A stretch of 64,000 nucleotides of DNA from Eledone cirrhosa (Eukaryota), in assembly GCA_964016885.1 (NCBI GenBank), contig OZ024741.1:352160001-352224000 (forward strand), given 5' to 3'. A program made the translations under genes and the position numbers. A model generated the notes under the pieces. That model saw only the letters and a list, made by a program, of their open reading frames with translations. It did not search any database and was not told the DNA's origin. Below are positions 10,245 to 11,256 of this stretch, one piece after another. Numbering within the stretch: the first letter of the stretch is position 1; each line of letters begins with the position of its first letter.

Positions 10245-10337
10245 AACGAAGGAAATGTGGTAAGGAACCAGGTGGACCATAACGCACCAAAGTACTCAAT
10301 ACTTAGGGTAGTAGAGTGGGTAATAGGGACAAGTAAG

Positions 10338-10431
10338 ACCCCGACGGCTGAGCTCAAGCCGTTTCGACGGCTAATTCTGGACTAAATGAAAATTTATTCT
10401 GGTATTTAAATAGCCGAGCTTATCAAGGGGT
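10338..10431 (-). ncRNA. Type I hammerhead ribozyme motif with U3-A8 core variant
   Basis: Minus strand reads ACCCC-UUGAUAA-GcuCGGCUA...UAGCCGuC-GAAA-CGGCU(ugagcuc)AGCCG-UC-GGGGU; GUC cleavage triplet. Confidence 0.75.
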
Positions 10432-11068
10432 AATTCCATATATGGTCAAAGAGATAATCACCAGGATTGGTCACATCACAAGTTAGTAGTAAATCGGTGA
10501 TGGCAAATTGGTGGAGGAACCCTTAGAGTTAGCACTAGTATTTTTTTGCGGGACCCTAAATTATATTCTCTTACTAGTTTAGTTTCTTGCACTGGGTGGT
10601 TGCAGGCTCTGTGATTGGGGTAGAAACCTTTATTATTTCGTGGCAGTCTCTTTAGTATTTTATTCTTCATTATATATATTTTTAAATTTATTTATCTATT
10701 CTTTTATTCACGTATTTGTTTGTTTATTTATTTATGTTTTTCTTTAGCCTAGCAATAGCGAGAGACTTAAGTCTTAGTAACCAGACTTTGCTTATTTTTT
10801 TTCTCTCTCAGTACTTGTTTATAGTTTGACCCTACATTGTTCTACTTACCGTTTCGAATTCCTCCCCCTCCCCACTATCCATTTGACCTCACGCCCAGCT
10901 GTAGCCGGCACTACCAACGCATGAATGGGTCTACTCCACCCCCTCTCCCCTTTTCTCCTACCGACAGGTTTAGCTACCCCTTCCCCCACCAATTTGCCAT
11001 CACCGATTTACTACTAACTTGTGATGTGACCAATCCTGGTGATTATCTCTTTGACCATATATGGAATT

Positions 11069-11185
11069 ACCCCTTGATAAGCTCGGCTATTTAAATACCA
11101 GAATAATTTTTCATTCAGTCCAGAATTAGCCGTCGAAACGGCTTGAGCTCAGCCGTCGAAACGGCTTGAGCTCAGCCGTCGGGGT
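11069..11185 (+). ncRNA. Type I hammerhead ribozyme motif with U3-A8 core variant and duplicated GAAA/stem III module
   Basis: ACCCC 11069-73 pairs with GGGGU 11181-85; UUGAUAA 11074-80; GAAACGGCTTGAGCTCAGCCGTC twice (11135-57, 11158-80). Confidence 0.72.
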
Positions 11186-11195
11186 CTTACTTGTT

Positions 11196-11196
<1 letters not shown>

Positions 11197-11256
<60 letters not shown>

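Follow-up and report, generated by a model that had tools for sequence, protein, structure and literature searches.

The window, a 64,000-nt stretch of Eledone cirrhosa DNA, contains an insert of about 950 nt that is bounded on both sides by (TA)n/(TG)n tracts. This insert is likely, from its sequence, a Hydra-clade Penelope-like retrotransposon, 5'-truncated and non-coding, that inserted head to head into (TA)n. As a copy it is ordinary, a dead insertion of a class already known, and its parts and surroundings are as follows.

9500-10245, no strand assigned: left flank, a (TA)n/(TG)n microsatellite that is the insertion target
10246-10322, minus strand: tail, element sequence from +21 to +97 past the predicted cut, present in the left arm only
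10323-10519, minus strand: left (short) arm, an inverted copy of the element 3' end or pseudo-LTR, 97.5% identical to parent unit positions 3320-3596
10338-10431, minus strand: left type I hammerhead motif, predicted cut 10343/10342
10508-10980, plus strand: spacer, a 5'-truncated and internally deleted form of the parent's 3' untranslated region (blastn to the parent unit)
10981-11200, plus strand: right arm, sense-oriented 3' end or pseudo-LTR that stops within (TA)n, +17 to +20 past the predicted cut
11069-11185, plus strand: right type I hammerhead motif, core UUGAUAA at 11074-11080, predicted cut 11180/11181
11158-11180, plus strand: 23-nt tandem duplication of GAAA-helix III-GUC, a copy of 11135-11157
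11198-11410, no strand assigned: right flank, a (TA)n/(TG)n microsatellite

Positions 10342-10519 match the reversed stretch 11158-10981 at 98.3% over 178 nt, and the outer part of the arms, 10323-10372 against 11200-11151, agrees at 98%. A preliminary description of this DNA had given the element as 10323..11200; the arms stand as placed there but the start does not, the element reaching left to about 10246 with an 80-nt tail that passes into (TA)n through a TAT common to element and target. By blastn, the spacer matches parent unit positions 2871-3024 and 3168 onward; at the junction, 12 nt of it are shared with the left arm. The insert as a whole maps to the final 630 nt of one parent unit and the initial 100 nt of the unit that follows. 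The 23-nt duplication is private to this locus (1 of 337 loci), and because of it the predicted cut of the right arm falls after 11180. A read-through transcript of the window copy would likely pair the two arms, masking the ribozyme.

Each arm carries, in order, ACCCC, UUGAUAA, a helix II region of 54 nt, GAAA, helix III, GUC and GGGGU. This hammerhead anatomy with a U3-A8 core had been pointed out before and is found as described, with UUGAUAA at 10426-10420 on the minus strand and 11074-11080 on the plus strand. In the left arm, read on the minus strand, helix I pairs ACCCC (10431-10427) with 10342-10338; the core is followed by the helix II region (10419-10366), GAAA (10365-10362), a helix III carrying a GAGCUC loop, and C17 at 10343 just ahead of GGGGU, so the predicted cut at 10343/10342 agrees with the earlier coordinates. 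The layout is that of type I, with three helices around the core, an open helix I and an NUH site. U4, G5 and A6, A9, G12, A13 and A14, A15.1-U16.1 and G10.1-C11.1 are all present, and the 3-8 pair is Watson-Crick (U3-A8) in both window arms. Helix II of the window motif has a C/U mismatch and a bulge adjoining G10.1-C11.1, and in predicted folds helix I is able to extend across an internal loop. Elsewhere in the family the GUC site occurs in 185 of 211 assigned arms (counted as U16.1-C17), and 46 of 49 cores reached through an anchor outside the core have UGA at 4-6, one more being shifted by a base. The motif is not due to chance, since the core pattern has 2147 exact genomic matches and its reversed control has 0. 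The expectation that canonical models would miss it was borne out, as Rfam searches of both window and element gave no hammerhead match at E<=10.

A DNA search of the window's own genome (3.0 Gb) gave 1484 candidates, and the 40 that were scored held 42 matches, 96-100% identical. The autonomous Penelope-like partner that the preliminary description had suggested seeking does exist: intact copies of a parent element of about 3.5 kb, with RT and GIY-YIG motifs in 717 aa, are present in the same genome. At locus L031, one strand carries two hammerheads spaced 3496 nt apart, and an RT and GIY-YIG-type frame lies in the interval. L150 consists of 3531-nt units in tandem, two of which show a single difference. 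The L150 ORF of 717 aa is unbroken and lies on the same strand as the predicted hammerhead, its ATG being 190 nt downstream of the predicted cut. In a protein search, the 123 copies scored are 95-100% identical; 1 of 30 fetched copies has an unbroken frame from a start codon within the locus. L150 and L151 (G000:C1:437198501-437216000) form a tandem array with unbroken ORFs. At 1755-1955 of L150, the 67 codons ahead of the first ATG, which span the predicted cut and the tail, contain no stop; the open frame comes to 784 codons in all, and a non-ATG start is possible.

The 717-aa protein has RWR at 37, DKT at 117, YRDD at 348 and VIY/YIG at 591/606. Its linker reads CNCPDRSIC at 572 (CxCx5C), with no Cx2-5CxxC, and there is a CNLCSEE at 670 and a CKH after N689. 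A single ORF with RT plus a GIY-YIG endonuclease at the C terminus, recognised here by motifs only, is as expected of EN+ Penelope-like elements, and further traits of the group are present: the partial-tandem pseudo-LTR (L031, L150), the inverted 5'-truncated copy, the one-sided tail, and a sense-strand hammerhead motif inside the pseudo-LTR. The diagnostic motif set and (TA)n targeting of the Hydra clade are described in the available part of PMC8557442, and the family shows an RWK-like motif, DKT replacing DKG, CxCx5C, CxxC/CxH around conserved E and N, and insertion into (TA)n. By its protein motifs alone the parent belongs to the Hydra clade of Penelope-like elements; the canonical hammerhead core is not what the window family carries, and is a trait reported for a clade that is itself defined by protein. 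Relatives in the databases show about 40% identity (54% in one case), and three of the clade motifs recur in 111-118 of 120. Pfam and PDB sequence searches with the parent ORF gave no recognition.

Several side observations concern the parent and its relatives. Over 1956-4106 of L150, Pfam-A finds neither RT nor endonuclease, nor does it in two of three relatives tested, so that Hydra-clade elements would be overlooked by domain-based annotation. At L111, half a hammerhead of the window family is joined directly to coding sequence resembling a different Hydra-type family. A contig of a sequencing run from a second organism (run X5) matches the youngest subfamily at 1510-1693 of L150 without any substitution in 183 nt; a fraction of 0.26 of the sampled words occurs in that run, and either a close relative or a transfer may be involved.

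The ends of the arms fall into two main classes. Among 280 distinct hammerhead-bearing arms, 136 have short ends, 112 have the long, tail-type end seen in the left arm of the window copy, 7 read through into the ORF leader and 25 end elsewhere. Short arms end about +17 to +20 and long arms about +97 to +100 past the predicted cut (the class labels used in counting were +18 and +94), and both ends fall on TAT common to element and target. There are 116 head-to-head pairs, of which 98 are classable at both ends, and 91 of these 98 are mixed, one arm being short and the other long (p 9e-20). Cut-to-cut distance among the 116 pairs runs from 38 to 6008 nt, with no fixed unit. The opposite polarity of the window motifs is a by-product of normal head-to-head insertion and not a designed feature. 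As far as the published accounts are available, opposite-strand hammerhead pairs are already on record for Penelope-like elements (PMC4209133), as are inverted truncated partners and one-sided tails (PMC8557442). Exact matches to a 17-mer from the tail number 48,554 in the genome, and the 60 loci fetched by 3' patterns (L230-L289) are mostly tiny head-to-head inserts that end short of the core. Indeed, most members of the window family are palindromic inserts of 100-250 nt without a core. The arms that do include it run across the predicted cleavage site, so the RNA template would have been uncut or re-ligated at the hammerhead.

The state of the 3-8 pair varies widely within the family. The first set of cores, defined by the flanks ACCCC and GCTCGGC, comprises all 2147 genomic matches: 1033 C3/A8, 677 U3-G7-A8, 363 UUGAUAA, 23 without A8 and, by subtraction, 51 others. 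The 23 without A8 include 11 U3/G8 and 2 C3-G8, so that G8 totals 13 of 2147. A second flank class supplies 3790 more cores, the first 100 listed being 85 U3-A8, 12 C3/A8, 2 U3/G8 and 1 C3-G8. An older group of 206 matches is mostly UUGAUAA, with 9 G8 cores among the first 100 listed, and a G8-directed search in the oldest group gave 18 matches, 16 U3/G8 and 2 C3-G8. A canonical C3-G8 ancestral subfamily was sought in the genome; only scattered copies were found, that state being the majority in no sampled subfamily, and the step away from C3-G8 is therefore not captured. Conservation of UUGAUAA, GAAA and GUC across copies had been proposed as a check on the motif: GAAA and GUC are conserved, but UUGAUAA, with 363 of the 2147 cores, is not.

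The C3 state is heritable. A linked diagnostic accompanies 25 of 30 C3 loci and 0 of 60 U3 loci, and among 59 pairs with both cores, 12 have C3/A8 in both arms while 0 mix C3 with U3; assembly error and post-insertion mutation are ruled out as sources of C3 by the linked diagnostic and the agreement of both arms. An alternative register, in which N7 is deleted and G7 read as G8, was rejected on the U7, C7 and A7 subfamilies, which have no G there. Contigs of four public runs show changes at N7 and 10.2 and no C3 row, contig absence being uninformative; they do not independently confirm C3. ORFs that are almost complete but no longer intact are found in C3/A8 insertions (L154, L158).

Divergence places these states in relative order. 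In the ribozyme region (217 of the 280 arms, leaving out the similarity-ranked loci L001-L066), arms of the oldest groups diverge by about 9% from their group majority and those of the youngest by 1-2%. The corresponding values across 615 columns are 5.7% in C3/A8 (32 arms), 3.2% in the window subfamily (27) and 0.9% in the youngest (9). A tree of 66 of the 217 arms, built on 248 columns with positions 3, 7 and 8 masked and rooted on the oldest group, nests the young U3-A8 clade inside a C3/A8 grade (UFBoot 98; 99 for the whole group). Its older branches are U3-A8 or U3/G8, the U3/G8 subfamily comprising about 10 copies, and support is 69 for the branch that separates the oldest group from all others. 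In group M2, U3-A8 and C3/A8 branches are sisters, and the three youngest subfamilies are all U3-A8. A tree of the hammerhead region only is poorly resolved, and a 600-nt tree is without outgroup.

On these sequence comparisons, the U3-A8 pair of the window is a re-pairing after a long mismatched phase and not one compensatory step from C3-G8, because 1033 of 2147 cores are C3/A8 and the window subfamily nests within the C3/A8 grade. The earlier proposal that both partners of the pair had changed together does not survive this descent. C3 had either one origin and two reversions, or two origins and one reversion. The mismatched C3/A8 core would likely cut poorly, and the element may be able to spread without cutting. 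Tentatively, and with chances that we put slightly below even, the 3-8 pair cycled from U/G to U-A, to C/A and back to U-A during amplification to thousands of copies. In that event, either the mismatched cores were dead and Penelope-like elements transpose in vivo without cleavage, or the cores were rescued, be it through trans-cleavage in heterodimers via the invariant palindrome, through protein help or through editing of A8. No earlier report of an amplified C3/A8 subfamily was found in the literature searched, and primary work on 3-8 variants may hold one.

While the 3-8 pair changed, the ribozyme fold and most of the core are conserved across subfamilies in the alignments. Comparison of seven subfamily majorities shows 4 of 48 structured columns varying versus 50 of 82 flank or loop columns. 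Helix I, U4-G5-A6 and A9 were fixed by the search patterns, so their conservation is partly built in; of the unfixed structured columns, 1 of 21 varies by reading of the tree alignment. The search patterns left GAAA, loop 3 and the 5' strand of helix III free, and these are invariant among the seven majorities; N7 takes all four bases. In 12 hand-picked copies, 3 pairs of helix II change on both sides; this covariation score was reached by 1 of 500 shuffles, with few events behind it, and the number of covarying helix II pairs was not significant against shuffles (279/500). Part of the conservation could stem from protein binding close to where priming occurs.

The full stem III had been thought to suggest cleavage as a monomer, a suggestion that predicted folds do not bear out. 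The hammerhead-constrained fold of the left arm lies 2.6 kcal/mol above the predicted minimum, and a hairpin that buries GAAA has a predicted probability of 0.49 versus 0.43 for helix III; in a C3/A8 example the competing hairpin reaches 0.81 versus 0.07. In the youngest large subfamily, that of L150, two substitutions make the hammerhead the predicted minimum-energy fold. Loop 3 reads GAGCUC in all seven subfamily majorities and in 178 of 211 assigned arms, and the isolated helix III 19-mer, out of context, is predicted to be 14-16.5 kcal/mol more stable as a self-duplex than as two hairpins. A palindromic loop 3 together with dimer cleavage is a known pattern for Penelope-like ribozymes, as described in the available parts of PMC4209133 and PMC6765202, and the invariant palindrome here looks like such a dimer signature. 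Cleavage of a monomer would be possible yet is not the favoured reading.

Taken as a whole, the family is best explained, and with good probability, by Penelope-like insertion through two opposite-strand priming events, the predicted hammerhead cleavage being a slow, dimer- or protein-aided and weakly selected accessory. Likely, two reverse-transcription events are primed on opposite target strands, each copying the single predicted hammerhead of the element. The GIY-YIG domain would nick both target strands, reverse transcription would start on uncut or re-ligated RNA, at roughly +17 and +97 past the cut, and two truncated cDNAs from one kind of RNA would then be joined head to head. The parent hammerhead likely trims a tandem precursor RNA to 3.5-kb units, slowly, and probably either aided by protein or as a dimer formed via the GAGCUC palindrome. 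Selection on cleavage, likely an accessory step, is probably weak, because the fold was kept while the 3-8 pair passed through C/A, and probably U/G, amid ongoing amplification.

Other readings of the motif have to be weighed against accessory cleavage. One is that the motif is a relic that has lost catalysis and serves the element's protein solely as a structure for binding or priming. The lack of a C3-G8 majority in any sampled subfamily fits such a relic, as does the position of the short arm end just 3' of helix I, and hammerhead mutants were without effect on insertion in vitro (PMC11167929, available part). That said, U4-G5-A6, GAAA and GUC have been kept while N7 varies freely, and the lineage regained a Watson-Crick 3-8 pair at least once and possibly twice; we regard the relic as unlikely, though worth keeping in mind. 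Could the motif instead be an efficient monomeric ribozyme under strict 3-8 selection, with the C3/A8 copies as a dead-end burst? Its helix III of 5-6 bp, the conserved fold, the U3-A8 state of all three youngest subfamilies and the two changes that favour the hammerhead fold in the youngest large one would suit it, and U3-A8 is reported active in vitro in the accessible part of PMC3088659. Yet C3/A8, with at least 1033 cores, is ancestral to the window subfamily and no side branch, the competing hairpin and palindromic loop 3 speak for something other than a monomer, and in one deep mutational scan only a G3-C8 swap rescued the hammerhead motif (PMC9901934), all of which makes this rather improbable.

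The invariant palindrome also allows C3/A8 RNAs to be cut in trans, a U3-A8 core in a dimer cleaving the partner site so that mismatched subfamilies borrow cleavage. Helix I is, like GAGCUC, identical in all seven subfamily majorities, the favoured self-duplex and the sister branches in group M2 point the same way, and dimer cleavage has been described for these ribozymes (PMC4209133 and PMC6765202, in part). Borrowed cleavage is nonetheless quite doubtful, as the energies come from a 19-mer out of context and the subfamilies would need to be co-expressed. Very improbable is A-to-I editing of A8, which would restore a C3-I8 pair in C3/A8 transcripts and gate the ribozyme. Inosine at position 8 supports hammerhead activity, A8 sits beside long inverted-repeat duplexes, and G8 is rare in the DNA; but the same edit would turn U3-A8 into a wobble, and duplexed arms would not fold as hammerheads. 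We give almost no credence to a non-autonomous retrozyme, that is, a viroid-like RNA circle with ribozymes in both polarities. The window copy has no ORF and carries motifs on both strands, as a retrozyme might, but every part of it maps onto a coding element's 3' end and the cut-to-cut distance is variable; this origin and variability contradict the viroid-like reading. The tandem non-coding monomers, each with a hammerhead, that characterise retrozymes were not found. Non-LTR retrozymes (bioRxiv 10.64898/2026.07.22.740005, available part) share type I hammerheads related to Penelope-like pseudo-LTRs; theirs are tandem non-coding monomers, whereas the window element is a truncation product of a coding element.

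Returning to insertion by two priming events with accessory cleavage, the family can be set beside better-known elements, as far as the available parts of the sources describe them. Hydra-clade elements (PMC8557442; e.g. Hydra-1_Obim, Penelope-1_SK) have in common with it a C-terminal GIY-YIG-type region, RW[KR], DKT, CxCx5C, CxxC and CxH, a (TA)n target, a sense-strand type I hammerhead near the 3' end, and an inverted 5'-truncated partner with a one-sided tail. The element of the window family is longer, at 3.5 kb with 1.19 kb from stop to cut, and has a tail of 80 nt versus 30-40. In file S2 of that paper, 26 of 26 Hydra-clade hammerhead rows are CUGANGA with a helix III of 3-4 bp and loops of 1-3 nt, whereas the window family has YUGANAA, a helix III of 5-6 bp, a palindromic loop of 7-9 nt and a helix II insert of about 35 nt. 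Judged by eye, the family differs from Hydra-1_Obim.

The U3-A8 core is not novel: about 1,300 Penelope-like hammerheads of Schistosoma are already reported to have it, as are other natural hammerheads (PMC4209133 and PMC3088659, in part). Cercyon of Schistosoma mansoni (Cervera and De la Pena 2014, PMC4209133) has this core in a Penelope-like pseudo-LTR, together with opposite-strand pairs 100-700 bp apart, a palindromic loop 3 and G10.1-C11.1. Its hammerheads lack the helix III that is full in the window family, and the available part of the Cercyon account contains no mention of C3/A8 subfamilies. In the accessible part of the work on Poseidon PAc of Anolis carolinensis (Frangieh et al. 2024, PMC11167929), in vitro insertion involved nicking and extension of both strands of an AT-rich target and two internal reverse-transcription starts bounding the tail, and unprocessed, hammerhead-uncut RNA was the main template; all of these are likenesses to what is proposed here. 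PAc belongs to another clade, however, with a canonical C3-G8 pair and a hammerhead that overlaps the ORF start, and its priming is inside the ORF, whereas in the window family both cut and priming come before the first ATG.

The role of the hammerhead in Penelope-like elements has been called unclear (PMC8557442, available part), and Poseidon insertion in vitro did not need cleavage (PMC11167929, available part). The kind of element, the U3-A8 core and opposite-strand pairs were already known; added here are a hammerhead architecture unlisted for the Hydra clade, a count of two-site priming and a dated series of 3-8 states. The genomic counts favour two-site, two-strand priming, and a family with at least 48,554 tail matches is missed by both Rfam and Pfam. 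Moreover, the family provides natural variants at the catalytic 3-8 pair in near-identical backgrounds, and because their relative ages and copy numbers are known, cleavage rate can be compared with transposition success. The dated series thus makes the role of cleavage testable and, if the 3-8 pair did cycle as proposed, would constitute a natural allelic series for hammerhead function in Penelope-like elements.

The window holds other candidates of a similar kind. A relaxed hammerhead scan of both strands of the 64 kb returned 6 rows for 5 cores: the two of the element described above, two CUGAAGA at 98 and 343, and one weak match at 3360. The CUGAAGA cores, at 98 on the minus strand and 343 on the plus strand, belong to another short inverted element at 31-420 that has a short helix III and an AUA site; it resembles a typical minimal Penelope-type hammerhead and is unrelated in sequence to the window family. 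The weak match, CUGAGGA at 3356-3398 with a 4-bp helix I and a 2-bp helix III, may be due to chance. Self-comparison of the window also revealed more inverted repeat pairs, 180-880 nt in length, at 22466-25040, 45892-50202 and 54447-63112.
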